From Chloroflexota bacterium (GTDB taxonomy: Bacteria; Chloroflexota; UBA6077; JACCZL01), in the NCBI GenBank assembly GCA_030447245.1, contig JAUJPG010000004.1, positions 16,843-80,842 on the forward strand: a stretch of 64,000 nucleotides of DNA. The letters are read 5' to 3'. Of this stretch, positions 9,778 to 48,197 are shown piece by piece (position 1 is the stretch's first letter; each line of letters opens with the position of its first letter). A program made the translations under genes and the position numbers. Under the pieces are notes generated by a model. It searched no databases, was not told the DNA's origin, and saw only the letters and a list, made by a program, of their open reading frames with translations.

Positions 9778-9783
9778 GGCGGC

Positions 9784-10626: not shown

Positions 10627-10777
10627 CTGGTCGCCGCCAGCCCGAGCGTCGGCGATGCCTCTCACGCGAACTCGATCTGGAGCATACGATCCCCCGCTGC
10701 GCCCGGGAAGACCTGCAGTGGACTCACAATGACACGCGCCGGGCGCCGGATGGCACCAGGCGCCGCGGCTCGTCGGC

Positions 10778-11125: not shown

Positions 11126-11129
11126 GACC

Positions 11130-29112: not shown

Positions 29113-30282
29113 ATGAAAGTCCGGACCGCGGCGGATAAGGCGCTGGAGCGTGCAGTCGATGCAGGCGACGTACCCGGCGTCGTCGCTCTGGCAGCCGACG
29201 AGACCGGCATCATCTATGAGGGCGCGTTCGGCACGCGTGAGGTGGCCAAGAGTCAGCCCATGACCCTCGACACCGTGTTCTGGATCGCGTCGATGACCAA
29301 GGCGGTGACGTCCGTCGCGGCCATGCAGCTCGTCGAGCGAGGGGAGCTGGAGCTCGACGAGCCGTTGGGCGAGCGTATGCCGGGGCTGGCGTCGCACCAG
29401 GTGCTCGAGGGCTTTGACGCCGCGGGCACGCCACGCCTTCGTCCGGCGAAGCGGCCGATCACCCTCCGCCACCTCCTGACGCACACGGCGGGCTTCACCT
29501 ACGACATCTGGAATGCCGACATGGGCCGCTTTATGGCGCAGCGGGGGATTCCCGGCATTATCGAGTGCAAGGACGTCACGCTCAGCACGCCGCTGGTGTT
29601 CGATCCAGGCGATCGCTGGGACTACGGGATCAACATCGACTGGGTGGGTAAGACTGTCGAGAAGGTCAGCGGCCAATCGCTCGAAGAGTACTTCCGCGAG
29701 CACATCTTCGCCCCGCTTGGCATGGCCGACAGCGGCTTCGTGCTCTCGCCTTCGCAGCGAGAACGCCTGGCCAGCATGCACGCCCGCAATCCGGATGGCT
29801 CGTTGACGGCGATCCCGTTCGAGATCCCGCAGCAGCCCGAGTTCTTCATGGGCGGCGGCGGCCTCTACTCCGTCGGGCGCGACTACCTGACCTTCCTCCA
29901 GATGCTGCTGCACGAAGGCCGGTTCAAGGGCGTCCAGGTGCTGCGGCCGGAGACCGTCGCCGAGATGGGTAAGAACCAGATCGGCGATCTCACGGTCAGC
30001 GGCCTCAAGACGGCCATCCCGGCGAGCTCGAACGACGCCGAGTTCTTCCCCGGGATGCACAAGACCTGGGGTTTGGGCTACATGATCACCACCGACAACG
30101 CGCCAACCGGGCGGAGCAGCGGCAGCCTCGCGTGGGCCGGGCTGGCCAACACCTACTTCTGGCTTGACCAGACCAAGCGTCTCACTGGCCTGATCCTGAC
30201 GCAGATCCTTCCATTCGCGGATGCCAAAGCCCTCCGCCTCTTCGAGCAGTTCGAAACGGCGATCTACGAGCGCGGCGCGTAA
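29113..30282 (+). CDS. serine hydrolase, beta-lactamase/esterase family
   Basis: S-x-x-K active-site motif IASMTKAVTS, YGINIDW and WAGLANTYFW regions typical of class C beta-lactamase-like esterases. Confidence 0.75.
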   Translation: MKVRTAADKALERAVDAGDVPGVVALAADETGIIYEGAFGTREVAKSQPMTLDTVFWIASMTKAVTSVAAMQLVERGELELDEPLGERMPGLASHQVLEGFDAAGTPRLRPAKRPITLRHLLTHTAGFTYDIWNADMGRFMAQRGIPGIIECKDVTLSTPLVFDPGDRWDYGINIDWVGKTVEKVSGQSLEEYFREHIFAPLGMADSGFVLSPSQRERLASMHARNPDGSLTAIPFEIPQQPEFFMGGGGLYSVGRDYLTFLQMLLHEGRFKGVQVLRPETVAEMGKNQIGDLTVSGLKTAIPASSNDAEFFPGMHKTWGLGYMITTDNAPTGRSSGSLAWAGLANTYFWLDQTKRLTGLILTQILPFADAKALRLFEQFETAIYERGA

Positions 30283-31859: not shown

Positions 31860-34469
31860 CTAGTCGCTCCAGCGGATGAGGCCGAGACGGGCAGGGGTGG
31901 AGCCGTCGAGAGACTGGGCAGGATGGCGGGGGGTAACGCGGACGGCGTAGCCGTGGCGACCGCTACGCTCGCCGGGGACGCCCCGGCCCCCGAAAACCCA
32001 GCAGCCTGGCTTGAGCTCGAGGTCCGGCTCGAGCTCGACCAGCGTCGGCCCTGTCAGCATTCCCTGCCCATCGATCGGCCCAAGCGCCAACTGGACGAGG
32101 ACCTCGGACGGGCCTAAGGAGCCCAGGTGCACCTCGGTCTGGAGGTCGAAGTGCCCGCCGGAGTCGAGCGTATCCGGGATGCCACGGACGGAGCCAATGC
32201 GCACGGCCGGCCACTGCTCGACGACCCGGGCCGACCAGGCGGCTAACTCGCGAGCGGGGTCCAGGCCGTTCGACGCCAGTCGGCGTACTTCGGCGGTGGA
32301 GGGCTCATAGAATCGGGCGGCATACTCTTCGACCATCCGATCGGTGTTGAAGATCGGCGGCAGCGCGCTCATCGACGCCCGCATGCGCGAGACCCAACCC
32401 TGGGGCACGCCGGCCGCGTCGCGCTCGTAGAACAACGGGACGATCTCCCGCTCGAGCAGGTCATACAGTGACTGGGCCTCGACCTCGTCCTGGCTCTCGG
32501 CAGCTTCATAGAAGCGGCGATCGCCGATCGCCCAGCCGAGGCCCGGCCGGTACGCCTCGTCCCACCAGCCGTCGAGCGTTGCGACATGGAGCCCGCCGTT
32601 GGCGACGGCCTTCATGCCACTGGTCCCACTGGCCTCGAGCGGACGGCGCGGGGTGTTGAGCCAGACGTCCACGCCCTGGACCATCCAGCGCGCCACGCCG
32701 ATGTCGTAATCCTCGAGCATCACGATCTTGCCACGGAGCTCCTCGCTCCGCGCCAGCTCCACGAGCCGCCGGATCAGCTCCTTGCCGCCGTTGTCAGCCG
32801 GGTGGGACTTCCCCGCGTAGATGAACTGGACCGGGCGACCGGCGGCCGTGATCAGGCGGATCAGCCGGGCCGGATCGCGCAGCATGAGCGTGGCGCGCTT
32901 GTATTCGGCAAAACGACGGGCGAAGCCGATCGTCAGCGCGTGGGGATCGAGCGCCTCGACAGCCCGGCCGACCTCGCCCGGTCCGGCGCCTTGACGGGTC
33001 AGCTGCGTGTTCAGCCGCGCGCGGACGTAGTGGACCAGATCGGCGCGCAGCCGTTCGTGTCGCGCCCAGAGATCGCGGTCCGAGATCGTCTCCACGGCGC
33101 GAGGTCGATTGCCGGCCCGGAGTCCCAGCCGCCCCGGGGGTCTGTCACCGTTGGCGCCATCATCGTCCGAGGCATCATCAGTTTGGGCAGCGCCAGGGCG
33201 CTGGAGCTCGGCCATCTCGGGCGCCAGCCATGAGGGGAGGTGGATACCGTTGGTGACGCTGTCGATCGGGACCTCGCCCTCCGCCAGGCCTGGCCAGACC
33301 CTCCCCCAGATTCGGCGCGACACGCCACCGTGAAGCTTGCTGACGCCATTACTGTGACCCGCCAGCCGCAGCGAGAGCACGGTCAGTGAGAACGGCTCGT
33401 GCTCGTCGCGCGGGTCTAGCCGCCCGAGCGTCATGAACTCGGTCCGGGAGAGCCCGAGCTCACGAGAGTAGCCGCCCAGATAATGGTCGATCATGCCGGC
33501 GTCGAAGGCATCGTGACCGGCCGGCACCGGGGTGTGTGTCGTGAAGACCAAACCGGCCGACGCGGCGCAACGACCCTCGGCGAAGCTCAGCTTGTGCTCC
33601 TGCATGAACTGGCGGATGCGTTCCAGGGCCAGGAAGGCCGAGTGCCCCTCATTGAGGTGACAGACTTCAGGCCGCAGGCTGAGCGCATCGAGCGCGCGCA
33701 GGCCGCCGATCCCAAGCAGCAGCTCCTGACGAATCCGCATGTCGCGGTCACCGCCGTACAACTGATCGGTGATCGATCGGTCCTGCTCGGCATTCGATTC
33801 GACGTCGCTGTCGAGCAAGTACAGCGCGGTCCGTCCGACCTGGACGTGCCAGACCCGCGCGGCGAGGTCACGACCCGGAAACTGGAGGTGGACCATCACC
33901 TGGTTGCCCGAGGCGTCCAGGGCCGGCCGGACCGGAAGCTGGGCCGGGTCGTTGTCGTGATGGGCCTCTTCCTGCCAGCCGTCCAGGCGGAGCCGCTGCA
34001 GGAAGTAGCCACGGCGATAGAACAGGCCGACTCCAGTCAGGTTGAGGCCCAGATCGCTGGCCGACTTGAGATGGTCGCCGGCCAGCACGCCCAGCCCGCC
34101 GGAGTAGATCGGCAGGCACTCGGACAGGCCGAACTCGGCGCAGAAGTAGGCGACGCGTGGGCGCTCGGCCCCATCGGCCCCGTCACCATCCAGATAGGCT
34201 GCCAGTTCGGCGGCGGCGCCGGCCAACTCGCGCCGGTAGCCCTGGTCGCGTGCCATCTCGTCGAGCCGGGCCTGGTCGATCGTCCGAAGCAGCAGGATGG
34301 GGTTGTGGTTGGTGGCGGCCCAGCGAGCGGGGTCCAGGCGGCGGAACAGGTCGGCGGCCTGGGGGTCCCAGCTCCAGCGCAGGTTATAGGCAAGGTCGAC
34401 CAGCGGCGCCAGCGCGGGTGGAACCTTCGAGACAACGGTGAAGATGCGAGATGGTCGGATGATCGTCAC
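31860..34469 (-). CDS. glgP: alpha-glucan phosphorylase
   Basis: 869 aa; HLNEGHSAF and pyridoxal-phosphate region typical of GT35 maltodextrin/glycogen phosphorylases. Confidence 0.85.
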   Translation of the reverse strand: MTIIRPSRIFTVVSKVPPALAPLVDLAYNLRWSWDPQAADLFRRLDPARWAATNHNPILLLRTIDQARLDEMARDQGYRRELAGAAAELAAYLDGDGADGAERPRVAYFCAEFGLSECLPIYSGGLGVLAGDHLKSASDLGLNLTGVGLFYRRGYFLQRLRLDGWQEEAHHDNDPAQLPVRPALDASGNQVMVHLQFPGRDLAARVWHVQVGRTALYLLDSDVESNAEQDRSITDQLYGGDRDMRIRQELLLGIGGLRALDALSLRPEVCHLNEGHSAFLALERIRQFMQEHKLSFAEGRCAASAGLVFTTHTPVPAGHDAFDAGMIDHYLGGYSRELGLSRTEFMTLGRLDPRDEHEPFSLTVLSLRLAGHSNGVSKLHGGVSRRIWGRVWPGLAEGEVPIDSVTNGIHLPSWLAPEMAELQRPGAAQTDDASDDDGANGDRPPGRLGLRAGNRPRAVETISDRDLWARHERLRADLVHYVRARLNTQLTRQGAGPGEVGRAVEALDPHALTIGFARRFAEYKRATLMLRDPARLIRLITAAGRPVQFIYAGKSHPADNGGKELIRRLVELARSEELRGKIVMLEDYDIGVARWMVQGVDVWLNTPRRPLEASGTSGMKAVANGGLHVATLDGWWDEAYRPGLGWAIGDRRFYEAAESQDEVEAQSLYDLLEREIVPLFYERDAAGVPQGWVSRMRASMSALPPIFNTDRMVEEYAARFYEPSTAEVRRLASNGLDPARELAAWSARVVEQWPAVRIGSVRGIPDTLDSGGHFDLQTEVHLGSLGPSEVLVQLALGPIDGQGMLTGPTLVELEPDLELKPGCWVFGGRGVPGERSGRHGYAVRVTPRHPAQSLDGSTPARLGLIRWSD

Positions 34470-34662
34470 CTACAACAACTAGCAATCGGCGGCGGGCGGC
34501 CAGTATAGCGCGCCGAGGCTTCCGAGGATGGGTCAGGGGCGCGTTTGGTATACTTGGAGGCGTACCCTGGACGCCATGACGGCGCGGCGCCGCGAGCCGC
34601 GCCGTTCTTTTGTCCGCGGCCCAGCGCACTGGCGTGTGGCGGGCCGCGTCCGCTGGAGCCAC

Positions 34663-36552
34663 ATGCTGACCGAGAACGCCCTGACCGCTGCTCCACCAAA
34701 CGGGATTGGGCTACGGACCGATCTCCGCAACATCGCGATCATCGCTCACGTCGACCATGGCAAGACGACGCTGGTCGACGGGATGTTGAAGCAGTCGAAC
34801 ATCTTCCGCGCCAACCAGGACGTCGGCGAGCTGATCCTTGACTCGAACGCGCTCGAGCGTGAGAAGGGGATCACGATCCTATCGAAGAGCACCGCGATCC
34901 GCTTCCGCGGAGTGACGATCAACATCATCGACACGCCGGGTCACGCCGACTTCTCCGGCGAGGTGGAGCGGGTCCTCAACATGGCCGACGGCTGCCTGCT
35001 GCTGGTGGACGCGGTTGATGGGCCGATGCCGCAGACCCGGTTCGTTCTACGCAAGGCGCTCGAGCTGAACCTCCGACCGCTGGTGGTGATCAACAAGATC
35101 GACCGCCCGAATGCACGACCCGCCGCGGTGTTGGACATGGTCCAGGACCTGTTCCTGGAGCTGGCGACCCACGAGGAGCAGCTTGAGTTCGAGGTCATCT
35201 ACACGAATGCTCGCGAGGGTCAGGCAAGCAGCGATCCGAGCCGGCCAGGAACGTCGCTCGTCAGCCTGTTCGAGGCGATCGTCGAGCACATTCCGCCACC
35301 GCGCGCGGACCTGGACGGACCGTTTCAGATGCTGGTTACGAGCATCGATTACGACGACTACCGCGGGCGTAGCGGGATCGGGCGGATCCAGCGCGGGCGG
35401 ATCGGGGCAGGGGACGCGCTGGTCGTCCTGGGTCGGGATGGAGCAGCCACACCTCAGCGGGGGAGTTTGATCTTTCGCTTCGAGGGGCTCCGCCGGGTGC
35501 CGGCTGATGACGCCCGCTCCGGCGACATCGTGGCGATCGCCGGGTTGGAGGGCGTCCAGATCGGCGACACGGTTGCCGCGGCGGACGCGCCCGAGGCACT
35601 GCCCCGGCTCGAAGTCGAGGAGCCCACCGTCCAGATGACGTTCGGCGTCAATACGTCCCCGTTCGCCGGCCGCGACGGCAAGCACGTGACGAGCCGTCAG
35701 CTTCGATCGCGGCTCTGGCGCGAGTTGGAGACGAACGTGGCGCTGCGCGTCGAGGAAACCGACACAGCCGACGTCTTCCTGGTCAGCGGGCGCGGCGAGC
35801 TCCACCTGTCGATCCTGGTCGAGACGATGCGTCGTGAGGGATACGAGTTTGAAGTCTCACGGCCTCAGGCGATCACTCGGGTAGTGGACGGGCACGTGCA
35901 GGAGCCCGTCGAGCAACTGGTCATCGACACCGACGAGGCGTCCATCGGGGCACTGACGGAGCAACTGGCCAAGAGGCTCGCTCAGCTCACGAACTTGCAG
36001 AATGATGGGTCCGGGCGAGTCCGGCTGGAGTACACGATCCCAACGCGCGGCCTGATTGGCTTCCGCAACGCGTTTCTGACGATCACGCGCGGCGAGGGCC
36101 AGATGGCGAGCTTGCTGCTCGGGTTCGAGCCGTGGCGCGGGGCGCTCGCCGCCGATCGCAACGGCGCGCTGGTTGCGTCGGAAGGGGGCAGCGCGGTCAC
36201 CTTCGGGCTGGCGAATGCCCAGGGCCGCGGCCAGACCTTCATCGAGGCGGGGACCGAGGTGTACGAGGGGATGGTGGTCGGCATCAATAGCCGCGAGGAC
36301 GACCTGACGGTCAACATCTGCAAGGAGAAGCAGAAGACCAACATCCGCTCGTCGACGTCTGACATCGCGGTGCGGTTGACGCCACCAGTCAAGCTGAGTC
36401 TGGAGGAGGCGCTCGACTTCCTGGCAGCCGACGAGCTGCTCGAAGTGACCCCCAGGGCGTATCGCCTCCGCAAGCGCCTGCTCAGTGCCGACGATCGGGC
36501 CAAGGTCCGCAAGCGCGCAGCCTGGGGCGACCAGCGGCCCGCCAAGGGGTAG
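34663..36552 (+). CDS. typA: translational GTPase TypA/BipA
   Basis: [30 protein letters not shown]-motifs and EF-G-like domains; start at MLTENAL inside track ORF 34528..36552. Confidence 0.9.
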
Positions 36553-36662
36553 GACCGTCTCGGGCTGGTCGTCAGAGGCAAGGCGCCTGTTCATCGGCGC
36601 GCACACCGCGCGTCCCGAGCGGCCAGACATGGCGACCGGTCCTGCTCCCGGAGTGATCCCCC

Positions 36663-37535
36663 ATGCCTGAGTGTCCCGCGGGCGACTGGCGAGAGTTCGA
36701 CCTGGCGCCAGGTGAGCGGGCGGCCTACGAGGTCACGCGGGTCCTCTATCGCGGCAAGACTCGGTTCCAGGAGGTCGAGATCGTCGAGACACGGGCGTAC
36801 GGACTCGCCTTGTTCCTGGACGGGTCGCCGCAGTCGGCGGTCGTTGACGAGTTCGTCTACCACGAAGCGCTAGTCCACCCTGCCCTCATCGCTCATCCGA
36901 ACCCGCGGCGCGTCCTGATTGCCGGCGGCGGTGAGGGGGCCACGCTGCGCGAGGTGCTGCGCCACCCGAGCGTCGAGCGCGCGACGATGGTCGACATCGA
37001 CGGCGAGCTGGTCGAGCTGGCCCGCCGCTATCTGGAACCGATGCACGGCGGGGCATTCGATGACCCACGCGCGGACGTGGTCATCGGCGACGCCCTGGCC
37101 TTCCTGCGCGAGCGCGAGGCGCGCTACGACGCGATCGTGGTCGACCTGGTGGATCCGAGCGACGAGGGGCCGGCCGTCGAACTGTACGGCGAAGAGTTCT
37201 ACCGCCGGGCGCGATCTCGGCTTGACGATGGCGGCGTCCTGGCGACCCAGGCGTATAGCTTCGCGCTCCACAACCTGAACTGGTTCACCAGGATCGTCCA
37301 GACACTTGGACTGGTGTTCCCGGTCGTGCGGCCCTATCGGGCCGAGATCCCGTTCTTCAAGGACAGCTGGGGCTTCTGCGTCGCCTCGGCCCTGCGCGAC
37401 CCGACGGCGCTCGGCCCGCTGATGGTAGATATGGCGTTGACCCAACGCGGCCTGGAAGAGCTCAGCTTCTACGACGGCGACACCCACGCCGCGATGTTCG
37501 CCATCCCAAAGTACGCTCGCGCTCGTATGGGTTGA
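36663..37535 (+). CDS. polyamine aminopropyltransferase paralogue (spermidine synthase-like)
   Basis: SpeE fold with VLIAGGGEGATLREVL (GGGEGA in place of the GGGDGG seen in the operon copy) and IVVDLVDPSDEGP. Confidence 0.75.
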   Translation: MPECPAGDWREFDLAPGERAAYEVTRVLYRGKTRFQEVEIVETRAYGLALFLDGSPQSAVVDEFVYHEALVHPALIAHPNPRRVLIAGGGEGATLREVLRHPSVERATMVDIDGELVELARRYLEPMHGGAFDDPRADVVIGDALAFLREREARYDAIVVDLVDPSDEGPAVELYGEEFYRRARSRLDDGGVLATQAYSFALHNLNWFTRIVQTLGLVFPVVRPYRAEIPFFKDSWGFCVASALRDPTALGPLMVDMALTQRGLEELSFYDGDTHAAMFAIPKYARARMG

Positions 37536-37572
37536 CCCTACCGCACCGTGATTCGGAGCTTTCGCACGTCTG

Positions 37573-37597
37573 CCCCGCCGTGGTGCGCACGGCGGGG
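37573..37597 (+). terminator. stem-loop immediately downstream of the speE paralogue
   Basis: ccccgccgtg-gtgcg-cacggcgggg, 10-bp perfect stem; no clear U-tract. Confidence 0.3.
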
Positions 37598-37891
37598 GTC
37601 CGCCAGAACTCTGGGCGACCCATCTGCCGAGCTCGGTTGCCGGAGCGGGGCAGTACGATCAAGTGGTTGTCGCGAGACGCGTTAGACTGCCACGCCTGGG
37701 AGGAGATCGAGCATCTCGGCATCAGCCCCAATCTACAGTAGGATCATGCGTTCGTGGCCCTCAGCATGGTCCTGTACGCCACGCGCCAGCCTGAATCCAA
37801 GAGCACGACCGCGCCGAAGAAGGTGTCGGGGCTCAGGATGCCGCGTACCTCGCGGTCGCGTGCATGGAGCGCCTGAGCCGAAATAGGGGAT

Positions 37892-40402
37892 GTGGATACG
37901 CCCAACAGAGCACCCGCATGGAGCATTGGCCTGGTGATACGCGTGGTGCGTGGTGTTGCCCTGGTAGTTGGCGTCACCGCCTGGGTCGCGTACCTCGGGC
38001 GGCTGCTCCTCCGCGCGCTGCACATGCTTCAGTTGGAGGGGTATCAATCCGCGCGGTTTCTGCACTGGTCGACGAAGAAGGCGGAGCGCTGGGCGCGGAG
38101 TGACCGCGCCGCGCTCGCGGTGGTCGCGGGGGCGATCGGCCTCGCGGGGCGGTCCGCGCCTGGTGGCCGGCCGGCATTCGCCGCCGCGGTCTGGGCCGTG
38201 ATCGGGGCATGGCTGCTGCGAGGGGCGACGTTTGGAGCGGCCAAGAAGCCGCTGGTGCTGACCCCGCGGGCCAGGCGCCTACTGGCCGGCGAGGCGTTCA
38301 TAGCAAGCGTGGCGGCGATCGGGCCGGCCGCGTGGCTTGCGATCCGCGGGCGGCCAGACGCGGGGGCAGGCCTGTGCGTCGGGATCTCCGCGGCCAGCCT
38401 GTTGGTGCCGACAATCGCGGCAGGCGCGAACGTGCTGCTCTGGCCGATCGAAGAGGGGTTCCGGCGCTACTACCTGCGCGATGCGAAACGGCGCCTGCGG
38501 GCGTGCGGACCGACGGTGATCGGCGTCGCGGGCTCGTACGGCAAGACAAGCACCAAGGAGTTCATCGCCGCGATCCTGGGGCGGCAGCGACGGGTGCTCA
38601 AGGCGCCCGGGTCCTACAACACGCCGATGGGGCTATGTCGGGTGATCCGCGAGCACCTAGAGCCGGGCCACGAGCTGTTCGTCGCGGAGCTGGGCGACTG
38701 GGTACCTGGTGACATCCGCTTTCTTTGCGAACTTGTCGACCCGAAGATCGGGGTGCTGACGACGATCGGACCAGAGCACCTCGAGCGATTTAGAACCCTC
38801 GACCGGGTGGTCCAATCCAAGGCCGAGCTGATCGACGCGCTGCCGCCGGACGGGGTCGCCGTCGTCAACCAGGACGACTCGCTGGTCCGTGGGCTCGGCG
38901 AGCGGGCCTCGGCGCGTGGGCTGCGGGTCGTCCGCTACGGCCTGGGCGACGACGCCGACGTCCAGGCCCGCGACGTGCAGACGACGCGTGACGGTCTCCG
39001 GTTCGTGGTGGACGCGCAAGGCCACGGGGTCGCCGAGCTACGGGTCGGTGTCCTCGGACGGCACAACGTGTCCAACCTCCTGGCGGCGGCGGCAGTGGCG
39101 CTCCAACTGGGGATGTCGCTGGAAGACATCGCGGAGGCGGCGTCGACAATCGAGCCGGTCGAGCACCGCTTGCAGCCGATTCGTGGGACTGGTGGAGTGC
39201 TGGTGATCGACGACGCTTTCAATGCCAACCCTCGCGGAGCCGCCGAGGCGCTCGACGTCCTGGCCGAGCTGGGGACCGGCCCTGATGGCGGACGACGCAT
39301 CCTGGTGACGCCGGGGATGATCGAGCTAGCCGAGCGGGAGTGGGACGAGAACAAGGCGTTCGGGCGCAAGGCGGGCGAGGTCTGCGACGTCGTAATTCTG
39401 GTTGGTCCGAAGCGGGCCAGGCCGATCCTCGCGGGCCTCCGCGTGGCAGGCTTTCCGGCGGACCAGACCCACGTCGTACGCAACCTGGCCGAAGCCACGG
39501 AGCGCCTGCAAGGGCTGGTTCGATCAGGCGACGCGGTGCTGTTCGAGAACGACTTGCCGGACACCTACGACGAGAACGGGACGACCGACAGCCTGGCTAT
39601 GCCGCCAACCGAAACTGTCGAGGGCGAACGCCCCACCGGTTCGGTCATCGTGGACGGCCTACGGGTCACCTACCGCGAGGAGGGCGCGGAGACCGGGCGA
39701 ACACCGGTCGTCGTGCTGCACGGATGGGGAGCCAGCAGCGGGGCCGTCGTTTCGATCCAGCGATGCCTCGGAGGCGAGCGGCGGACGGTCGCGCCGGACC
39801 TGCCGGGCTTCGGCGCGAGCGACCTGCCGCCAGAGATCTGGGGCACGGCCGACTACGCCGCGGCCGTGCGCGCATTTCTGCGGGAGGTGAAGATCGAGCG
39901 GGCCAGCTTCGTCGGCCACTCGCGCGGCGGCGGGATCGCGATCTTTCTGGCGGCGACCGCGCCCGAGCTGGTGGACAAGCTGGTGCTCGTCGACAGCGTT
40001 GGCATTCGGGCGCACCGCGGTCCTGGCTATCGCGCTCGCGTGCTGGCATTCAAGGCCGCGCGGCGGGTGGTCGCCAGTCGGTGGACGCGGAGGATCCAGC
40101 CGCTTCAGGAATGGTTCGAACGGCGGTTCGGGTCGGCGGACTACCGCCAGGCGGGCGCGATGCGCGGAACCCTGGTCCGCCTTGTCAACGAAGATCTGCG
40201 GGTGCTGCTGCCGCGAATTCAGGCGCCGACGTTGCTGATCTGGGGCGACCAGGACGAGGACACGCCGATCTCGGACGGCAGACAGATGGAGGAGCAGATC
40301 CCGGATGCAGGACTGGTCGTGTTCCCGGGCGCCGGGCACTTTTCGTACGCGGACGACCCCGGCCGATTCTGCCGCGTCGTCGACCACTTCCTCAAGAACT
40401 GA
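37892..40402 (+). CDS. Mur ligase family protein (MurF-like) with N-terminal membrane segment and C-terminal alpha/beta-hydrolase domain
   Basis: VIGVAGSYGKTSTKE P-loop, GPEHLERF, HNVSNLLAAAAVA, IDDAFNANP Mur-ligase motifs; then a continuous frame into VVVLHGWGAS...FVGHSRGGGIAIFLA...GAGHFS (GxSxG nucleophile elbow and His); N-terminal 200 aa hydrophobic. Confidence 0.65.
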   Translation: MDTPNRAPAWSIGLVIRVVRGVALVVGVTAWVAYLGRLLLRALHMLQLEGYQSARFLHWSTKKAERWARSDRAALAVVAGAIGLAGRSAPGGRPAFAAAVWAVIGAWLLRGATFGAAKKPLVLTPRARRLLAGEAFIASVAAIGPAAWLAIRGRPDAGAGLCVGISAASLLVPTIAAGANVLLWPIEEGFRRYYLRDAKRRLRACGPTVIGVAGSYGKTSTKEFIAAILGRQRRVLKAPGSYNTPMGLCRVIREHLEPGHELFVAELGDWVPGDIRFLCELVDPKIGVLTTIGPEHLERFRTLDRVVQSKAELIDALPPDGVAVVNQDDSLVRGLGERASARGLRVVRYGLGDDADVQARDVQTTRDGLRFVVDAQGHGVAELRVGVLGRHNVSNLLAAAAVALQLGMSLEDIAEAASTIEPVEHRLQPIRGTGGVLVIDDAFNANPRGAAEALDVLAELGTGPDGGRRILVTPGMIELAEREWDENKAFGRKAGEVCDVVILVGPKRARPILAGLRVAGFPADQTHVVRNLAEATERLQGLVRSGDAVLFENDLPDTYDENGTTDSLAMPPTETVEGERPTGSVIVDGLRVTYREEGAETGRTPVVVLHGWGASSGAVVSIQRCLGGERRTVAPDLPGFGASDLPPEIWGTADYAAAVRAFLREVKIERASFVGHSRGGGIAIFLAATAPELVDKLVLVDSVGIRAHRGPGYRARVLAFKAARRVVASRWTRRIQPLQEWFERRFGSADYRQAGAMRGTLVRLVNEDLRVLLPRIQAPTLLIWGDQDEDTPISDGRQMEEQIPDAGLVVFPGAGHFSYADDPGRFCRVVDHFLKN

Positions 40403-40535
40403 TGGACGACACCAGACGCCGCGTGTCTGAAGAGCAGGACCGGCTGCGTTTCATTTCCGGTGTCTGCGCGGCGGCGCTTGCCATGCACCCGTACAATGCC
40501 GCGCGAACCAAGGCGGACATAGCTCTGAGGGTGGA

Positions 40536-41768
40536 ATGACTGATCTAAGGCGCAAGCGGCGCGTGGCCGTGCTGTTCGGGAGTCGCTCGGTCGAGCACGA
40601 GGTCTCGATCATCTCGGCGATTCAGGCGATGGACGCCATGGACCCGCGCCGCTACGAGCCGCTGCCGATCTTCATCACCAGGCATGGGCGCTGGGTGACG
40701 GGGCCGGACTTGCGGAGGATCGAAGCGTACCAGGACCTGCCAGCGCTGCTCCGACGCTGCCGACCGGTCTACCTGCGGCCGGAGCCGTACGAAGCTCGGC
40801 TGTTCATGGAAGAGTCCGGTCTCATCGGCGGGCGGCGGACACGCAGCACGATCCTGGACGCGGTGTTTCCGATCATCCACGGAACGTTCGGCGAGGACGG
40901 CACGATCCAGGGCCTCCTGGAGCTCGCAGACGTGCCGTACGTCGGCGCCGGGGTGGTCGGCTCGGCGGTCGGCATGGACAAGATCATCATGAAGGCGGCG
41001 TTCCGGGCGGCCGGGCTGCCAACGGTCGAGTACCACTGGTTCACTCGACCGCGCTGGGAGCGCAGCCGTGAGGACGTGCTCGCGGAGGTCGAAGCCAGGC
41101 TGCGCTACCCGCTCTTCGTCAAGCCCGCGAACCTCGGGTCGAGCGTCGGAATCACCAAGGCGCAGAACCGCGACGACCTGGCCGACGCGATCGACGTGGC
41201 CGCCCACTACGACCGCCGCCTGCTGGTCGAAGAAAGCTTCGAGGGGGCGACCGAGATCAATTGCGCGGTGCTCGGCAACGGCGACCCTATTCCCTCGGTC
41301 TGCGAGCAGCCAGTCAGGTGGACCGACATCCTCAGCTACGAAGACAAGTACCTGCGGAGCGCCAACGGCAAAGGCAAGCGCCAGCGGGTCGGCGCCAAGG
41401 GCGCGGGTGACGGCGATGGCGGAATGGCCGGGGCAGATCGCCGCATTCCAGCCCCGATCTCGGACGATCTGACAGCCGCCGTCCAACGCCTGGCGGTCGA
41501 GTCCTTCGTTGCCATCGACGCTGCCGGCCTGGCGCGTGTCGACTTCCTCGTTGACGAGGAGAGCGGGCGAATCTGCGTCAACGAGATCAATACGCTGCCT
41601 GGATCGCTGTCGTTCTACCTGTGGGACCCGAGCGGTATCCCGTTCCCAACGTTGATCGATCGCCTGCTGGAGCTGGCGTTCGAGCGGCATCACGAGCGCC
41701 GGCAGACGACGTTCACCTACGACAGCACCCTCCTCCAGCAGATGGCCAGCGGCTCGAAGCAATCGTAG
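40536..41768 (+). CDS. ddl: D-alanine--D-alanine ligase
   Basis: VAVLFGSRSVEHEVSIISA, HGTFGEDGTIQGLLE and ATP-grasp C-terminal EINTLPG motifs. Confidence 0.85.
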   Translation: MTDLRRKRRVAVLFGSRSVEHEVSIISAIQAMDAMDPRRYEPLPIFITRHGRWVTGPDLRRIEAYQDLPALLRRCRPVYLRPEPYEARLFMEESGLIGGRRTRSTILDAVFPIIHGTFGEDGTIQGLLELADVPYVGAGVVGSAVGMDKIIMKAAFRAAGLPTVEYHWFTRPRWERSREDVLAEVEARLRYPLFVKPANLGSSVGITKAQNRDDLADAIDVAAHYDRRLLVEESFEGATEINCAVLGNGDPIPSVCEQPVRWTDILSYEDKYLRSANGKGKRQRVGAKGAGDGDGGMAGADRRIPAPISDDLTAAVQRLAVESFVAIDAAGLARVDFLVDEESGRICVNEINTLPGSLSFYLWDPSGIPFPTLIDRLLELAFERHHERRQTTFTYDSTLLQQMASGSKQS

Positions 41769-41772
41769 GCCC

Positions 41773-41798
41773 CCGAGCGGCGTGGGCGACCCGCTCGG
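41773..41798 (+). terminator. stem-loop immediately after the ddl stop codon
   Basis: ccgagcgg-cgtgggcga-cccgctcgg, 8-bp stem; no U-tract. Confidence 0.3.
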
Positions 41799-42205
41799 AT
41801 GTGATGGGACCGTGACCACAGGGTTCTCCCCGCGGCCGCTCGGCAGATGTACACTGCCGCCGTCAGACGCGGCCGAGCCGAATGGTGAGGCCGGGTGACA
41901 GCGGCAGGCCGTTCCTTCGCGAGTCGCCGCTGGTTTTCCGCAGTTGGGGCGGCGGCCAACGCCCCGTTCGTGGTCTGGCCGGGCAGCCCGGGAGGCGCAA
42001 GCTTCTCGGGCTGTTTTCTTGTCCGCCGCCCGGGGCGCTGGCGAGGCTCGGATTGGGACATCCCTCCTGTGACCCCGTACATTTACCGGGTCAGAGCAGA
42101 CAGCGTGGTATAGAGTAGTCTCACGGCAACCGGCCACTGCCGGAGGCGTCCCGCACCCTGCGCAGGGTGCCCCCGGGGCGAGTGGCTGGTGGGGCACAGC
42201 GCCAG

Positions 42206-44542
42206 ATGGGCTCGAACCGACGACGGGACAATCTCCCCGACTTCCAATCGGCCTTCGTTGGTCGCGGGCGGCACCTTGTCGAGGTCGCGCGGCTGCTTCG
42301 GACCGAGCGGCTGGTGACCTTGACCGGGCCGCCCGGTGTGGGCAAGACACGGCTGGCGCTCCGCGTCGCGAGCACGATGAGAAGCCGGTACGCCGACGGC
42401 GTCTGGCTCGTCGAGCTGGCGGCGATCGCCGAACCGGCAATGGTGGCGCACCGAGTAGCGAGGACGCTCGCCGTACTTCCCCGGCCAGGTCGGGCCCTAC
42501 TCGACGAGCTGGCGGCGCTGCTCCAGGATCGGCGCGCTTTGCTGGTGCTCGACAACTGCGAGCATGTCCTGGACGCCTGCGCGAGACTTGCCGATCGCCT
42601 GCTGCGTGCCTGCCCTGAGCTGGCGATCCTGACGACGAGCCGCCAGTCGCTCGGGCTCGCCGGTGAGTGGGCGTGGCTGGTGCCGCCACTGTCGGCGCCA
42701 CCAGTTGGCGGGCTCGGCAACGGCGCGCCGCTGGGCGAGCGCGACGCGATCGAGCGGTATGAGGCCTTCGAGCTCTTCGTAGAGCGCGCCCGGAGAGCCT
42801 CCCCGAGCTTCGCGCTGGACCAAGGCACCGCCGCGGCGGCGGCCCAGATCTGCTGCCGCCTGGATGGACTGCCGCTCGCCATCGAGCTGGCGGCGGCTCG
42901 CACGAGCAACCTGAAGGTCGAGGAGATCGCGGCCCTGCTCGACGACCGCTTCACTCTGCTGACGGCCAGTCCGGACGCAACGCCGACCGGCCAACGGTCG
43001 CTTCGAGCGACCCTGGACTGGAGCCACGATCTGCTGTCAGAGGCGGAGCAGGTCCTGTTCCGACGGCTGGCCGTGTTCGTCGGCGGCTGGACGCTGGAGG
43101 CGGCCGAAGCGGTGTGCGCGATCGACGGCGGATTACCCTCGATCGTCGATCTGATTTCGGGCCTGGTGGACCAGTCGCTGGTGGTGGCAGATGAGCGGGG
43201 TGGCGAATTCCGGTATCGGCTACTGGAGACGCTTCGCGAGTACGGACTGGAGCGGCTGCGCGCGGCGGGCGAAGAGGAGGGCCTGCGCGACGCGCACCTC
43301 GACTGGCTGCTGCGCTTCACCGAGGATGCCGAGCCCGCGCTGCGTGGGGCACAGCAGGCCGACTGGCTGGACCGGCTCGAAGTCGAGCACGACAACCTGC
43401 GGGCGGGACTCGGCTGGTGTCTCGGGCGCGGCTCGGCAGAGTCGGGACTGCGCCTGTGCTGGGCGGTCTGGCGCTTCTGGCTGACCCGCAACCATCCCGC
43501 CGAGGGGCTGGCGTGTCTGGCGCGGGTGCTCGGCCTGGAACGGGCAAAGGCGGAGCCCGCGTTGCACTTCGCTGGACTGTTTGCCGCCGGCCGGCTTGCC
43601 TACGTGGCAGGCGATCCAGAGACCGCGCGTCGGTCGCTCGAGGAGGCGCTCGCGATCGCAAGGGAGCTGGACCACCGAGAGGATATCGCCGGCGCCCTGA
43701 CTCAGCTCGGGCATCTCGCACGCGAGCGGGGCGATTACGCCACCGCGCGACGGCTGTACGAGGAGAGCCTCTGCCTTCGGCAGGAGGCCGGTGATCGGCG
43801 ACTGATCGCGATCTCGCTCGGCAGCCTCGGGCGGGCGGCCTACGGCCAGGGCAACCTGGCCGAGGCGCGGCAGCTAGCCGAAGGGAGCATCCACCTGAGT
43901 CGCACGGCTGGCGACCCGCGCGACCTTGGGACGTTGCTCGTGTTCCTCGGCGACGTTGCCAGTGAGCAAGGCGACCGCGACGCGGCGCGGGCATACTACG
44001 CCGAGGCGTCGGCCATCATCGAGCAGCTCCGAGATCGCCAGCTCCTGGCACAGCTCCTCGAAGGTTTCGCGGCGCTCGCGGCCGACGAGGATCGAGGACA
44101 GCGGGCACTGCGCCTGGCCGGCGCGGCGGCCGGCCTGCGCGAGTCGATCGGTGTCTTGCTCCAGCGTACCGAGCGTCATCGGCTGGAGCGCCGGATCGAT
44201 CCACTCCGCCGAACACTCGGGACGGACCGCTTCATGGCCCTCTGGGCCGAGGGCCGGGCCATGCCGATCGCGGACGCCATCGGCTACGCACTCGACGTGG
44301 ATCAGGTGCCCGATGCCGCGGCGGCCGTCCGGGCCGCCGCGGCCGAGCTGGGCCTGACGCCAAGCGAGCAGCGGATCACGCTGTTGCTCGGGCAAGGATT
44401 CAGCAACCGTCACATCGCCGCGACGCTGGAGGTCTCCGAGCGGACGGTTGAGTGGCACGTGGGCAATCTCCTGGACAAGCTGGGGCTAGCGTCGCGGGTC
44501 CAGGTGGCCGTGTGGGTCGTCGAGCACGGATTGGCGGGCTGA
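42206..44542 (+). CDS. STAND-type ATPase / LuxR-family transcriptional regulator
   Basis: Walker A LTGPPGVGKTRLAL, long TPR-like helical middle region, C-terminal LuxR HTH (LTPSEQRITLLLGQGFSNRHIAATLEVSERTVEWHVGNLLDKLG). Confidence 0.75.
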   Translation: MGSNRRRDNLPDFQSAFVGRGRHLVEVARLLRTERLVTLTGPPGVGKTRLALRVASTMRSRYADGVWLVELAAIAEPAMVAHRVARTLAVLPRPGRALLDELAALLQDRRALLVLDNCEHVLDACARLADRLLRACPELAILTTSRQSLGLAGEWAWLVPPLSAPPVGGLGNGAPLGERDAIERYEAFELFVERARRASPSFALDQGTAAAAAQICCRLDGLPLAIELAAARTSNLKVEEIAALLDDRFTLLTASPDATPTGQRSLRATLDWSHDLLSEAEQVLFRRLAVFVGGWTLEAAEAVCAIDGGLPSIVDLISGLVDQSLVVADERGGEFRYRLLETLREYGLERLRAAGEEEGLRDAHLDWLLRFTEDAEPALRGAQQADWLDRLEVEHDNLRAGLGWCLGRGSAESGLRLCWAVWRFWLTRNHPAEGLACLARVLGLERAKAEPALHFAGLFAAGRLAYVAGDPETARRSLEEALAIARELDHREDIAGALTQLGHLARERGDYATARRLYEESLCLRQEAGDRRLIAISLGSLGRAAYGQGNLAEARQLAEGSIHLSRTAGDPRDLGTLLVFLGDVASEQGDRDAARAYYAEASAIIEQLRDRQLLAQLLEGFAALAADEDRGQRALRLAGAAAGLRESIGVLLQRTERHRLERRIDPLRRTLGTDRFMALWAEGRAMPIADAIGYALDVDQVPDAAAAVRAAAAELGLTPSEQRITLLLGQGFSNRHIAATLEVSERTVEWHVGNLLDKLGLASRVQVAVWVVEHGLAG

Positions 44543-44933: not shown

Positions 44934-45977
44934 GTGAAGCCTACAGGACTCGCTCGAATCGCCCTGACGGCAACGGTCGCGCTCGGCGCCATCTGGAGTG
45001 CGGGCGGCGACGGCGGGCCGAGCACATCGTTCGCCTCGCTCGAGGCGGCGTCGCACCCCGAGGCGGCGCGGCAGGTTGCGACGCCGACGGTACCCGGCCT
45101 ACCTGAGAGCGCTCCGCTGCGCGTCGTCGACACGTTCGACGCCGTCGACAAGGGCGGGCGGGTCGCGCCCGGGCCCCAGGCCATCCCGCCCAACAGGGGT
45201 GACGAGCTCGTCGTGCCGGTCGAGCCCGACGACAACACGGGGTTCACCGACCGGATCAAGCATGACCCGAGCGACCGCATCGAGGACCTGGTCACGACCA
45301 CCGGCCTGTCGGTCATCCCCGAGGCGCTCCGGCCGGGCACGCACCCCTTCCCTGACGAGCCGCCCTTCACGCCGGTCGGGCCGATGGCGAACCCGCACGT
45401 GTGGGGGATGCGCTGGGTAAGCGAGGAACTCGAGGACCGCAGGGGCTATAACGACCCATGCAGGGAAAGCAACTCGACCGACCCGGTGCGCCCGAACTCG
45501 GTCGGCTTTCGCAACGTCAACAAGGTCGACGACCTCTGCAGCCTTAACCCGTTTTACCAGCTGGCTTTCAAGTTCGACTTCAGCACGCTGCGCCAGGCCA
45601 GCTTCCTTCCGATCAGCGCCGCGCTCAAGTTCCACGAAACCGTCTATGAAGAGCGCGATTCAAACGGCAACTATGTTCCCTTCGTCGGATTCCAGAACAC
45701 TTGCTCGCTCCGGCTCGGACGGCCGAATGGGCCCTGGAACGCCCCGCACGTAGGGTACCGAGGGCTCCCGTACACCGACCCACGGGAACAGAACCGGATC
45801 GGCGAGTTCAACGACATTCTGGACTGGGTGGTCACGATGGTTCGGAATCCCGCGGAGGAGGCTAAGGGGCTGATCCTCATCGGCAAGAGCGAGGACCGGA
45901 ACCCCGACAACGCCGCCTGCATGTCCCAGATCTCGAACATCGAGCTCGTGTTCACCTACGTGATCGCGGACCGTTGA
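44934..45977 (+). CDS. secreted Cys-containing hypothetical protein, family A (intact copy)
   Basis: Signal peptide MKPTGLARIALTATVALGAIWSA; conserved LAFKFDFS, CSLRLGRP, ILDWV, GLILIGKSEDRNPDNAACMSQISNIELVFTYVIADR shared with three other copies in the window. Confidence 0.6.
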   Translation: MKPTGLARIALTATVALGAIWSAGGDGGPSTSFASLEAASHPEAARQVATPTVPGLPESAPLRVVDTFDAVDKGGRVAPGPQAIPPNRGDELVVPVEPDDNTGFTDRIKHDPSDRIEDLVTTTGLSVIPEALRPGTHPFPDEPPFTPVGPMANPHVWGMRWVSEELEDRRGYNDPCRESNSTDPVRPNSVGFRNVNKVDDLCSLNPFYQLAFKFDFSTLRQASFLPISAALKFHETVYEERDSNGNYVPFVGFQNTCSLRLGRPNGPWNAPHVGYRGLPYTDPREQNRIGEFNDILDWVVTMVRNPAEEAKGLILIGKSEDRNPDNAACMSQISNIELVFTYVIADR

Positions 45978-46014
45978 GCGCTAGCACCGTGAAGACCGTA
46001 CATCGGAGTTCGAA

Positions 46015-47376
46015 ATGCGACTGACCACGCTCACCCGGGCCGCGCTTGCGGCGACGATCGTCCTCACGCTCGGCGGGCCGGCTCGTCCGGCACGGGCGGA
46101 CGAGTTCACCGTGACGCGCACCGACGACACCACCACCTGCACCCCCGGCGACTGCTCGCTGCGCGGGGCGATCATCGCCGCCAACACCTCGGCCGGACCG
46201 GACGTGATCTTGCTGCCGGCCGGCCTCTACATCCTGACGATCGGCGGCGCGGACGGCGGCGTCCTGGCCGCCAACGACGCCCAGAAAGGGGACCTCGACA
46301 TCGTCAATGGCTCCAGCATCACCATCGTCGGGGATGGCCCCGATACGACGATCATCGACGGCAATGGCGACATGACCCTCGATCGCGTCTTCGACATCGG
46401 CGCGGGCGGCAGGCTCCAGCTCGGGGGCGCGACGATCATGAACGGCCGCGCCGGAGTCGGCTTCCAGAGCCATGCCCACGGCGCCGGCATCCACAACCAC
46501 GGCTCGCTGATCCTGCAGAACGTCGTCATCAGCGACAACCGCGTCATGCTGACCGGCTGGGGCGGGGGCGGCATCACCAACGCGGACGCGCCCCAGAAGG
46601 CCTCGGCGTCGCTGAACAACGTCACCATCAGGGACAACGAGGCTCTCGAAGACACGGGCGGTGGCGCCATCGAGAACCTGAGCTTCCTGCAGCTCGAGAA
46701 CAGCACGCTGGCCAACAATCGAGCGCGCAATGGCGGCGGGATCGAGAACAAGGGAGTCAACGCCCTGGCCGGCCTGACCAACGTGACGATCAGCGATAAC
46801 CGCGCGGTCTCCAACGGGACCCCGACCACCGGCTTCGGCGGCGGTATCTCCAACCGAGACGGCGCGACCCTCTCCATGACCCACGTGACGCTGGCCGGCA
46901 ACAGCGCGGACACCCGCGGGGGTAACCTGGCGGCGCTGGACAAGGGCAAGTCCGTGACGCCCATCAACACGATCTTCGCCGACGGCAGCCCTGCCGATTG
47001 CTTCATCGAGGCGACCGGCGGCTACGTCTCCAACGGCACCAATCTCGCGACCGACGCCAACTGCAACCTGGCCGGCGCGGGCGACCGGCCGGGCGGCCAG
47101 GTGCAGCTCGGACCGTTGGCGGACAACGGCGGCCTGACCCCGACCCGCGCGCTGCTGCCGGCATTCCCTGACCACGGCAACGAAGCGATCGACGCCTGCA
47201 ACCCGGCGTCGTCGACGGACGCCGACCAGCGCGGCGAGCCCCGTCCCAGGGACGGCGACGGCGACGGCACGGCGATCTGTGACATGGGCGCCTACGAGAT
47301 GCAGCGCGCCGAACGCGGGCATGACAACGACAACGAGAACCACGACAACGACAACCATGACAACGACAACGACTAG
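46015..47376 (+). CDS. CSLREA-domain right-handed beta-helix surface protein (choice-of-anchor-type C-terminal region) with Asp/Asn-rich tail
   Basis: Signal peptide, CSLRGAIIAAN motif, repeated N.T....N beta-helix rungs, C-terminal DNGGLTPTRALLP...AIDACNP...DGDGDGTAICDMGAYE, tail HDNDNENHDNDNHDNDND. Confidence 0.7.
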   Translation: MRLTTLTRAALAATIVLTLGGPARPARADEFTVTRTDDTTTCTPGDCSLRGAIIAANTSAGPDVILLPAGLYILTIGGADGGVLAANDAQKGDLDIVNGSSITIVGDGPDTTIIDGNGDMTLDRVFDIGAGGRLQLGGATIMNGRAGVGFQSHAHGAGIHNHGSLILQNVVISDNRVMLTGWGGGGITNADAPQKASASLNNVTIRDNEALEDTGGGAIENLSFLQLENSTLANNRARNGGGIENKGVNALAGLTNVTISDNRAVSNGTPTTGFGGGISNRDGATLSMTHVTLAGNSADTRGGNLAALDKGKSVTPINTIFADGSPADCFIEATGGYVSNGTNLATDANCNLAGAGDRPGGQVQLGPLADNGGLTPTRALLPAFPDHGNEAIDACNPASSTDADQRGEPRPRDGDGDGTAICDMGAYEMQRAERGHDNDNENHDNDNHDNDND

Positions 47377-47423: not shown

Positions 47424-48197
47424 ATGGAGACCGAACATTCGATTGTGGCGCCAGGGCATGGGCGCGACCGATCGCGGTGGCTGCGCTGGACGGCGCTGCT
47501 GGGCCTGGTGGTCGCGCTGACCAGTCTGCCGGGCGTCGGCCTGGCGGATGACGACGAGAACAAGAAGAAGGACAAGCAGACCGCGAGCCTGCGAGAGTCC
47601 AGCCAACAGCAGACGATCGGACCAATCGACGACGCCGATCGGATCAGGATCCCTGACCTGACCGAGAAGCCGGGCCTGCCGCCGGACACGGTCGCCACCC
47701 CGGTCGACAACTTTGACGATCGGGTCAGGATCCCTGACCTGACCGAGAAGTCAGGTCTGCCGCCGGACACGGTCGCCACACCGATCGACCACGACCGGGT
47801 CGAGCAGATCGGCCAGCTGGTCGGCGAGAACACCTGGACGGACCGGGCCCCGATGCCCACCTCGCGCTTCGGGCTTGGGCTGGCGGCGGCGCAAAACGGG
47901 AAGCTCTACGCCGTCGGCGGCTACAACAACGGCGGCGCGCAGGCCACGGTCGAGGAGTACGACCCGGACCTCAACACCTGGAGGGCTCGGGTCCCGCTGC
48001 CCACCCCGCGCTCCGGGCTCGGGCTGGCGGTGGCGTCCAACGGCAGGCTCTACGCCGTCGGCGGCAACAACGGCAGCGCCTTTCTGGCCACGGTCGAGGA
48101 GTACGACCCGGCCACCAACACCTGGACGGCCCGGGCCCCACTGCCCACCGCGCGCTACGCGCTCGGGCTGGCGGCGGCGCAACCCTGCAAGCTCTAG
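47424..48197 (+). CDS. Kelch-repeat protein, truncated by an in-frame stop
   Basis: Signal/TM segment, two 27-aa tandem repeats RIPDLTEK.GLPPDTVATP, then Kelch blades (GKLYAVGG...EEYDP.TNTW); TAG at 48195 replaces the Tyr of the next LYAVGG. Confidence 0.6.
   Translation: METEHSIVAPGHGRDRSRWLRWTALLGLVVALTSLPGVGLADDDENKKKDKQTASLRESSQQQTIGPIDDADRIRIPDLTEKPGLPPDTVATPVDNFDDRVRIPDLTEKSGLPPDTVATPIDHDRVEQIGQLVGENTWTDRAPMPTSRFGLGLAAAQNGKLYAVGGYNNGGAQATVEEYDPDLNTWRARVPLPTPRSGLGLAVASNGRLYAVGGNNGSAFLATVEEYDPATNTWTARAPLPTARYALGLAAAQPCKL
47640..47795. repeat. near-identical tandem repeat (2 x about 78 bp) inside the Kelch gene
   Basis: cggatcaggatccctgacctgaccgagaag... repeated with a few substitutions. 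Confidence 0.7.

Follow-up and report, generated by a model that had tools for sequence, protein, structure and literature searches.

MurF, an essential enzyme and drug target, has been portrayed as a soluble protein of three domains. For natural chimeras of Mur ligases, in which the ligase is fused to a neighbour-encoded protein and fused and split forms coexist, a survey from 2023 gives five types, namely MurE-MurF, MurC-Ddl, MurC-MurB, MurG-MurC and MurD-FtsW (PMC10214165). Here we analyse a chimera of a type absent from these five, in which a MurF-like ligase is fused to a serine hydrolase rather than to a peptidoglycan-synthesis enzyme and for which, again, fused and split forms coexist. 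The fusion gene lies in a 64,000-nucleotide stretch of the genome of a Chloroflexota bacterium (contig JAUJPG010000004.1, positions 16,843 to 80,842; hereafter the window; GC content ~68%), between a stand-alone aminopropyltransferase (APT) gene, speE2, and a D-alanine--D-alanine ligase gene, ddl. This locus very probably consists of two unrelated units that happen to lie side by side, speE2, encoding a thermospermine-type APT, and a fused form of a housekeeping hydrolase/MurF/ddl cassette, so that their adjacency is a local feature.

The APT family is known to comprise a thermospermine-synthase clade, interspersed with spermidine and N1-aminopropylagmatine synthases, and a spermidine/spermine-synthase clade, as follows from the work of Li et al. 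(2024), who assayed about 40 enzymes, none of them from Chloroflexota (PMC11107197). Thermospermine synthases typically carry a Glu residue in motif 2, which goes with primary thermospermine-synthase activity in most cases; in the Medicago thermospermine synthase (TSPS), the marker residues are Glu109 and Asp129 (PMC11107197). In every bacterial APT pair tested, one member made spermine or thermospermine, and in some genomes, e.g., that of Thermodesulfovibrio yellowstonii, the two APTs belong to separate clades (PMC11107197). The product of the Thermus enzyme is thermospermine in large excess over spermine, and this enzyme also accepts agmatine for aminopropylation (PMC11107197).

The region 36663-41768 contains three genes, all on the plus strand, that encode the APT (SpeE2), the Mur-ligase/hydrolase fusion protein and Ddl. 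The three open reading frames (ORFs) of the original prediction, which was made from the sequence of the window, were recovered at these positions, and their family-level Pfam matches have E-values far below chance. In the fusion protein, the matches to Mur_ligase_M (4e-42), Mur_ligase_C (3e-14) and Abhydrolase_1 (2e-29) are all in one frame. The original prediction also suggested that speE2 and the cell-wall genes might form a polyamine-linked envelope module or might simply be adjacent, and it is the latter suggestion that the neighbourhoods of the relatives bear out. In an alignment-based scan with SpeE2 (one genome per GTDB species, 80 loci, flanks up to 10 kb, neighbourhoods read by tblastn with the window proteins), 3 loci belong to close relatives (62-73% identity) and 77 are remoter (43-53% identity), from Dehalococcoidia, Nitrospirota, Methylomirabilota and other groups. 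No MurF-like gene or ddl was found within 10 kb of the SpeE2-type gene in any of the 77 remoter loci, whereas this gene lies directly downstream of speD in 74 of the 75 that have room upstream. Among 80 metagenomic loci retrieved from the MurF side (ligase core 41-68% identical), a single one (L090) contains a SpeE2-like gene, 6.5 kb away from the ligase gene.

The gene order glgP-(bipA)-speE2 is common to the three close loci and two loci from an exact-protein look-up, and this synteny (L001, L004, L005, L006 and L050) persists even where the Mur ligase gene is not next to speE2. In L004, L005 and L050, a MurF-like gene follows speE2 immediately on the same strand, at a distance of -10 to +50 nt; the gap is longer in the window (356 nt) and exceeds 1.1 kb in L001, where speE2 and the MurF gene are separated by genes for an antitoxin-like protein and, on the opposite strand, a lipoprotein, and where ddl is absent. 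In the metagenome-assembled genome (MAG) STL-CHL41, the two parts occur on different contigs, contig 1 (L006) carrying glgP-bipA-speE2 and contig 2 (L002) the MurF-hydrolase fusion with ddl. The speE2-Mur ligase adjacency is limited to a few Chloroflexota MAGs with SpeE2 identity of at least 65% and is broken even there. Because the gap varies widely and the linkage is absent elsewhere, this adjacency is a shallow-lineage feature that is no better kept than the glgP/bipA adjacency; it is most probably the local gene order of a narrow Chloroflexota lineage and not a polyamine-envelope module. Missing conservation of the linkage is also what the original prediction had named as evidence against its module.

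The constant partners of the ligase are the hydrolase and ddl, not speE. The loci that carry this cassette (L085, L086, L088, L090-L169, L170, L171 and L172) are mostly on metagenomic contigs and bear at least three phylum labels. The hydrolase orthologue is adjacent to the gene of the MurF-like ligase, a predicted membrane protein (hereafter membrane MurF), in 59 of the 64 metagenomic loci with room for it, and in 58 of these 59 it is a separate gene that ends at the start of the membrane MurF gene (with a 4-nt overlap in L085). In 46 of 63 loci, ddl is the next gene downstream, and in 52 of 63 it is no more than 3 kb away. Outside the close relatives, the hydrolase, membrane MurF and Ddl are encoded separately, with the order of the genes constant. 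Look-ups that started from the hydrolase (~50% identity) led, in 3 of 3 cases (a Solirubrobacterales contig, a 4.3-Mb genome and an Alicyclobacillus-labelled MAG), to a Mur ligase of 530-547 amino acids (aa) without PF01225 and then to ddl; all three ligases have a hydrophobic N-terminal domain, with clear motifs in the Solirubrobacterales contig and degenerate ones in the other two.

The genomic context is that of murF, both in the window, where ddl lies directly downstream, and in L085 and L150, where the cassette is located between murE and mraY within the division and cell wall (dcw) cluster; in L095, penicillin-binding protein and murE genes lie upstream of the cassette, and in L171, mraY follows it. 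Most simply, membrane MurF would serve as the housekeeping MurF in these organisms, alongside a Ddl that co-evolves with it and an esterase-like accessory protein. The 836-aa protein and the ddl of the window could then be viewed as a lineage-specific fused form of the three-gene cassette: Ddl would make D-Ala-D-Ala, the membrane-tethered MurF would join it to the MurNAc-tripeptide precursor, which would be the usual final cytoplasmic reaction in the formation of peptidoglycan precursors in this organism, and the esterase-like hydrolase would have an accessory role. Nothing relevant on MurF proteins anchored in the membrane, on chimeras of MurF with a hydrolase or on peculiarities of the Chloroflexi dcw cluster was found in the openly searchable literature, outside of which many subscription-journal papers lie; provisionally, this cassette, widespread in several phyla, appears to be undescribed.

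The ligase core of the fusion protein is MurF-like both by sequence and by fold. Among the solved Mur ligases, it is closest to MurF (3.5e-38 to 6e-28), with MurC and MurE at ~1e-14 to 1e-15. The match to TIGR01143 covers only positions 65-403 of the profile, at 230.6 bits, short of the cut-off of 288.6. The canonical N-domain of MurF is absent, and a Pfam scan of the fusion protein yields no match to PF01225; in place of this domain, the ~205 N-terminal residues contain five predicted membrane helices with positively charged loops between them. In the AlphaFold2 (AF2) model, the helices span residues 12-48, 70-85, 93-111, 125-151 and 157-205, and the predicted local distance difference test score of this block is mostly 82-98 from residue 11 on. 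Family-wide alignments show conserved motifs in the cytosolic loops (LHxLQLEGY, KKPLVLTxRAxRL and ANxLLxPxE). When the membrane domain alone was used as the query in a full-library HMMER search, it was found only at the N-termini of ~520-565-aa proteins or fragments and hence is specific to this MurF subfamily; no solved structure resembling it was reported in a structure search. Thus, in contrast to the canonical MurF (4QF5, 4CVK, 1GG4 and 3ZL8), which has a soluble N-domain of ~80 residues, the variant starts with ~200 residues that form a five-helix membrane domain and carry motifs of their own, and its constant partner is an alpha/beta hydrolase, fused to it in the window.

A disordered linker (residues 562-578) separates the ligase core from the hydrolase domain. 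The latter scores over the Abhydrolase cut-off and contains a nucleophile elbow and a candidate Ser-Asp-His triad. Its structural matches are generic esterases and lipases, including the intracellular polyhydroxybutyrate depolymerase PhaZ (8YNV), ABHD6 and PlaF (6I8W), none of which is known as a partner of a Mur ligase, unlike the hydrolase of the window; as these three are no closer to it than many other members of the family, no substrate can be inferred from them. The fusion architecture is found also in an identical NCBI protein (P0001; 822 aa, with the start 14 codons downstream) and in ~26 homologues with 53-71% identity, and is confined to close relatives (P0002-P0027). A frameshift or assembly artefact is ruled out by this shared architecture.

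The Ddl protein exceeds the cut-offs of NF002528 (348 bits versus 262) and TIGR01205 (278 bits versus 245.65), and its best match in the PDB is the Xanthomonas DdlA (3R5F, 3.5e-71). Both domains score over the cut-offs, and the omega-loop retains the Lys-Tyr pair (EDKY), which we take to be a signature of D-Ala-D-Ala ligases. A Gly/Lys-rich insert is placed right after this pair (EDKYLR-SANGKGKRQRVGAKGAGDGDGGMA-GADRRIPAP). The cassette-linked Ddls of other organisms are likewise DdlA-type, keep Lys-Tyr and contain a Gly/Lys-rich insert of variable length along with a conserved GM...R.IPA; the distance from KY to IPA has a median of 18 and a maximum of 35 in these proteins and is 33 in the window. 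In Escherichia coli and Xanthomonas, by reading of the respective sequences, it is ~11-12. The assignment of this Ddl as a D-Ala-D-Lac or D-Ala-D-Ser ligase was considered and ruled out, as the NCBIfam models of the van type fall far short of their cut-offs and the Lys-Tyr pair is kept. The Solirubrobacterales contig (L170, 7513-9730) encodes a cassette Ddl (398 aa) with the insert, followed by a DdlB-type Ddl (322 aa) that lacks it.

SpeE2 contains both domains of the APT family above the curated cut-offs, PF01564 (Spermine_synth; E 1.4e-47, 162 bits, cut-off 22.9) and the N-terminal tetramerisation domain PF17284 (E 1e-11, 44.9 bits, cut-off 22.1), and matches NF002010 at 268.7 bits (cut-off 260). 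The original prediction read the GGGEGA of this paralogue, as opposed to the GGGDGG of the operon copy, SpeE1, as a sign that its substrate may differ. Both motifs were located (Table 1), GGGDGG as a single occurrence in the window, within the speE1 ORF, and a difference in the substrate class is supported by the ranking of PDB matches, a fully supported phylogenetic split, the comparison of motifs and the published Glu marker (PMC11107197). The nearest solved structures for SpeE2 are those from Thermus thermophilus (3ANX/1UIR; E 2e-69, 237 bits), Pyrobaculum calidifontis (7XIF) and Medicago (6BQ2), with the Bacillus and Thermotoga spermidine synthases at 183-185 bits, ~50 below 1UIR/3ANX. The ranking is reciprocal for SpeE1, which best matches Thermotoga 1INL, Bacillus 1IY9 and E. 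coli 3O4F, with 190 bits to 1INL versus 150 to 1UIR.

In a neighbour-joining tree of the 2 window proteins, 8 solved enzymes and 7 metagenomic homologues (MAFFT alignment trimmed to 216 columns; a distance tree of a small reference set anchored on PDB sequences), all 100 bootstraps separate {Ec, Bs, Tm, Ph, Se, SpeE1} from {Tt, Pc, MtTSPS, SpeE2 and homologues}, so that SpeE2 stands apart from the classical spermidine synthases. This bipartition coincides with the division into a GGGDG group, which includes SpeE1, and a GGGEG group, which includes SpeE2. Apart from motif 2, SpeE2 is marked by VHPA (residues 71-74), VDID in motif 3 and a substrate-amine site, DLVDPSDEGPA (Asp161/Asp164; DLVDP, residues 161-165), which in the alignment has a one-residue insertion compared to spermidine synthases; in SpeE1, the motifs are VHIP, GGGDGG (motif 2), VEID (motif 3) and DSTDPVGPA at the substrate-amine site. 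SpeE2 thus has Glu91 in motif 2 and Asp111 in motif 3, as expected of the thermospermine-synthase clade, where SpeE1 has Asp and Glu, respectively. The GGGEGA and DLVDP of SpeE2 align with the same motifs of the eight solved enzymes, and these positions are invariant among 18 homologues; because SpeE2 holds every residue that is invariant in this set, it is probably an active enzyme.

Judging from these sequence comparisons, SpeE2 belongs to the clade of the Thermus triamine/agmatine APT, the Pyrobaculum SpeE and the plant thermospermine synthase, and SpeE1 belongs with the classical spermidine synthases. The closest characterized relative is the Thermus SpeE (1UIR, 3ANX), which is alignable with SpeE2 over residues 15-283 and shares GGGEGATLREV, VDIDGELVE, DLTDP with the insertion and LY[TG]; SpeE2 is 24 residues shorter. 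Experiments have established thermospermine and N1-aminopropylagmatine as products of the Thermus enzyme (PMC11107197), whereas the product of SpeE2 is a prediction; moreover, Thermus employs a single APT for everything, and SpeE2 is a second copy besides a classical spermidine-synthase operon. The plant ACL5/TSPS (Medicago 6BQ2) is in the same clade and shares the motif-2 Glu and the motif-3 Asp. Some of the genomes considered by Li et al., such as that of T. yellowstonii, have the pattern observed here, one APT of each clade, and SpeE2 is an ordinary member of the known thermospermine-synthase-type branch. Its significance is that of a useful but expected Chloroflexota example of bacteria with both a spermidine-synthase-type and a thermospermine-synthase-type APT, which predicts long-chain polyamines in this uncultured lineage.

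The operon pdaD-speD-speE1-speB, by its gene content, is a complete spermidine route that would supply decarboxylated S-adenosylmethionine (SAM) and spermidine; it is compatible with the putrescine route and with the N1-aminopropylagmatine route alike. Given that the genome already encodes this complete route, SpeE2 most likely extends spermidine. The enzyme would take decarboxylated SAM from the product of speD, located 26 kb upstream, and add a further aminopropyl group to the spermidine made by the operon, yielding, as we infer, thermospermine or related long polyamines. Because the clade is interspersed with other synthases and the motifs do not define the product, thermospermine is only the most likely option. 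The GGGEGA-type genes that follow speD in Dehalococcoidia, Nitrospirota, Methylomirabilota and other groups (L007-L084) may encode the primary enzyme of the spermidine pathway in these organisms.

The alternatives differ considerably in their plausibility. To our knowledge, the polyamination of peptidoglycan in Negativicutes is the only known covalent link between a polyamine and peptidoglycan. In these diderm Firmicutes (Selenomonas, Veillonella), cadaverine or putrescine is attached to the alpha-carboxylate of D-Glu and is read by the SLH domains of OmpM, which provides a precedent for an envelope module in which the Mur-type ligase and the hydrolase would attach a SpeE2-made polyamine to a peptidoglycan precursor or trim it (PMC10628300). 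Such a module would also accommodate the lack of the canonical N-domain in the MurF variant and the same-strand arrangement of speE2 and the cell-wall genes, which nearly abut in L004, L005 and L050. Nevertheless, nothing at this locus or in its relatives ties an APT to polyaminated peptidoglycan of the Negativicutes type, and the synteny largely refutes the idea: the linkage dissolves beyond, and even within, the few MAGs with the most similar SpeE2, the ligase travels with ddl and the hydrolase and occupies the murF slot in dcw clusters, SpeE2-type genes partner speD, and in the window itself 356 nt separate the two genes. We therefore consider this explanation highly improbable and the polyamine/cell-wall module a tempting false lead that has no genomic support here. 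With respect to the product, SpeE2 might be a second spermidine or N1-aminopropylagmatine synthase that is redundant with SpeE1 or replaces it conditionally. Synthases of these kinds are interspersed in the same clade and the Thermus enzyme carries out both reactions (PMC11107197), and the position of the GGGEGA-type gene right behind speD in Dehalococcoidia and Nitrospirota is that expected of a primary spermidine-pathway enzyme. We find this option doubtful, albeit a serious one, considering that the complete operon is already present, that one member of each bacterial pair assayed by Li et al. made spermine or thermospermine, and that the motif-2 Glu mostly accompanies primary thermospermine-synthase activity.

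The housekeeping role of the cassette, too, has a competitor, namely, that the cassette is a second, specialised pathway, for instance in recycling, in resistance or in making an alternative stem-peptide terminus, and exists besides a canonical MurF encoded elsewhere in the genome. Most of the cassette loci, the window included, are outside any dcw cluster, the cassette Ddl has an unusual omega-loop insert, TIGR01143 is matched below its cut-off, and in L170 a second, short DdlB-type ddl comes right behind that of the cassette. However, wherever dcw genes are in view (L085, L150, L171 and, upstream, L095), the cassette takes the place of murF, with no additional murF visible between murE and mraY, and the Ddl keeps its Lys-Tyr. 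Furthermore, some Terrabacteria, e.g., Bacillus subtilis, normally have a ddl-murF pair away from the dcw cluster, which further reduces the case for a second pathway; we consider it unlikely. Several points weigh against the interpretation of two unrelated units with a housekeeping cassette. The metagenome scan was ranked by the full 836-aa query, which favours hydrolase-bearing loci; the hydrolase-first look-ups and three separately picked MurF homologues (3 of 3 in each case) lessen this bias without eliminating it. The housekeeping role of membrane MurF is deduced from its dcw position in other organisms. Co-transcription of speE2 and the MurF gene is plausible in L004, L005 and L050, given the same-strand arrangement and the short distances, so that a lineage-specific functional tie may exist there. 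Finally, motifs do not fully predict the APT product (PMC11107197).

Beyond the interpretation of two unrelated units, we tentatively consider the possibility that the cassette represents an undescribed, multi-phylum, membrane-anchored last cytoplasmic step of precursor synthesis, with the hydrolase catalysing a new editing or accessory reaction and SpeE2 unconnected to it. Under this scenario, MurF would have lost the nucleotide-binding N-domain and gained the five-helix membrane domain, and the hydrolase would be translationally coupled or fused to it, so that the step would take place at the membrane, either channelling its product to MraY or acting on a lipid-linked instead of a UDP-linked tripeptide. 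If true, a membrane MurF that always comes with a modified Ddl and a serine hydrolase would alter the picture of the hand-over of precursors from the cytoplasm to the membrane in Chloroflexota and some other Terrabacteria, and a role would be assigned to an unannotated hydrolase family.

Table 1. Features of the window discussed in the text (positions in the window; residues refer to the encoded proteins).
Feature	Coordinates	Strand	Description
pdaD-speD-speE1-speB	8863-11681	-	Polyamine operon, four genes
speB	8863-9777	-	Agmatinase homologue; TIGR01230 above cut-off
speE1	9784-10665	-	Third gene of operon; NF002010, 278 bits, above cut-off
GGGDGG	10354-10371	-	Motif 2 of SpeE1
speD	10778-11179	-	SAM decarboxylase; TIGR03330 above cut-off
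pdaD	11130-11681	-	Pyruvoyl-dependent arginine decarboxylase; TIGR00286 above cut-off
glgP	31860-34469	-	Upstream synteny anchor
typA/bipA	34528-36552	+	Upstream synteny anchor
speE2	36663-37535	+	Stand-alone APT, 290 aa; placed in thermospermine-synthase / Thermus triamine-agmatine APT clade
GGGEGA	36924-36941	+	Motif 2 of SpeE2 (Glu91; residues 88-93)
speE2/Mur-ligase spacer	37536-37891		356 nt
Mur-ligase/alpha-beta-hydrolase fusion gene	37892-40402	+	836 aa, single reading frame
N-terminal membrane domain	37892-38506	+	~Residues 1-205; predicted from hydropathy, alignments, AF2
MurF-type ATP-dependent ligase core	38507-39574	+	Mur_ligase_M + Mur_ligase_C; ~residues 206-561; P-loop GSYGKTSTKE; DDAFNANP
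C-terminal alpha/beta-hydrolase domain	39626-40402	+	~Residues 579-836; candidate triad Ser (GHSRGG), Asp (WGDQDED), His (GAGHF)
ddl	40536-41768	+	DdlA-type D-alanine--D-alanine ligase, 410 aa; Dala_Dala_lig_N and _C matched
Gly/Lys-rich omega-loop insert	41358-41429	+	~24 residues (Ddl residues ~275-298); alignment gap versus 3R5F
STAND-ATPase/TPR/LuxR regulator	42167-44542		Downstream of ddl

No Rfam family reached the gathering score across the whole window, so that no riboswitch or other RNA element is assigned to the 356-nt spacer between speE2 and the fusion gene. Likewise, sigma-70-like sites were not found in a promoter and terminator scan of positions 34000-42500, which gave no prediction close to the spacer. 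A GC-rich hairpin after speE2 (~37574-37598) folds no better than shuffled sequence (z = -1.2).

Several other genes of the window deserve mention. A protein with the class-C beta-lactamase/DD-peptidase fold (29113-30282, plus strand; PF00144, 2e-61) is encoded 6 kb upstream of speE2 and, as far as seen, has no tie to the cassette in the relatives. Downstream of the STAND-ATPase/TPR/LuxR regulator gene, two ORFs (44934-47376 and 47424-48197, both on the plus strand; 347 and 453 aa; GC content at third codon positions 0.87-0.92) without Pfam matches are followed by a gene for a Kelch-repeat protein. A run of envelope-related genes (2657-8858, plus strand) includes those for a DUF4331 protein that has a LysM domain at its C-terminus and for a protein with a sortase domain, a long TPR-like ORF, and the gene for a NicO-like membrane protein of 618 aa, whose long stretch rich in His and Asp (HGHRHGDDHAHGHPHGDGHAHGHGHDH) is suggestive of metal handling.

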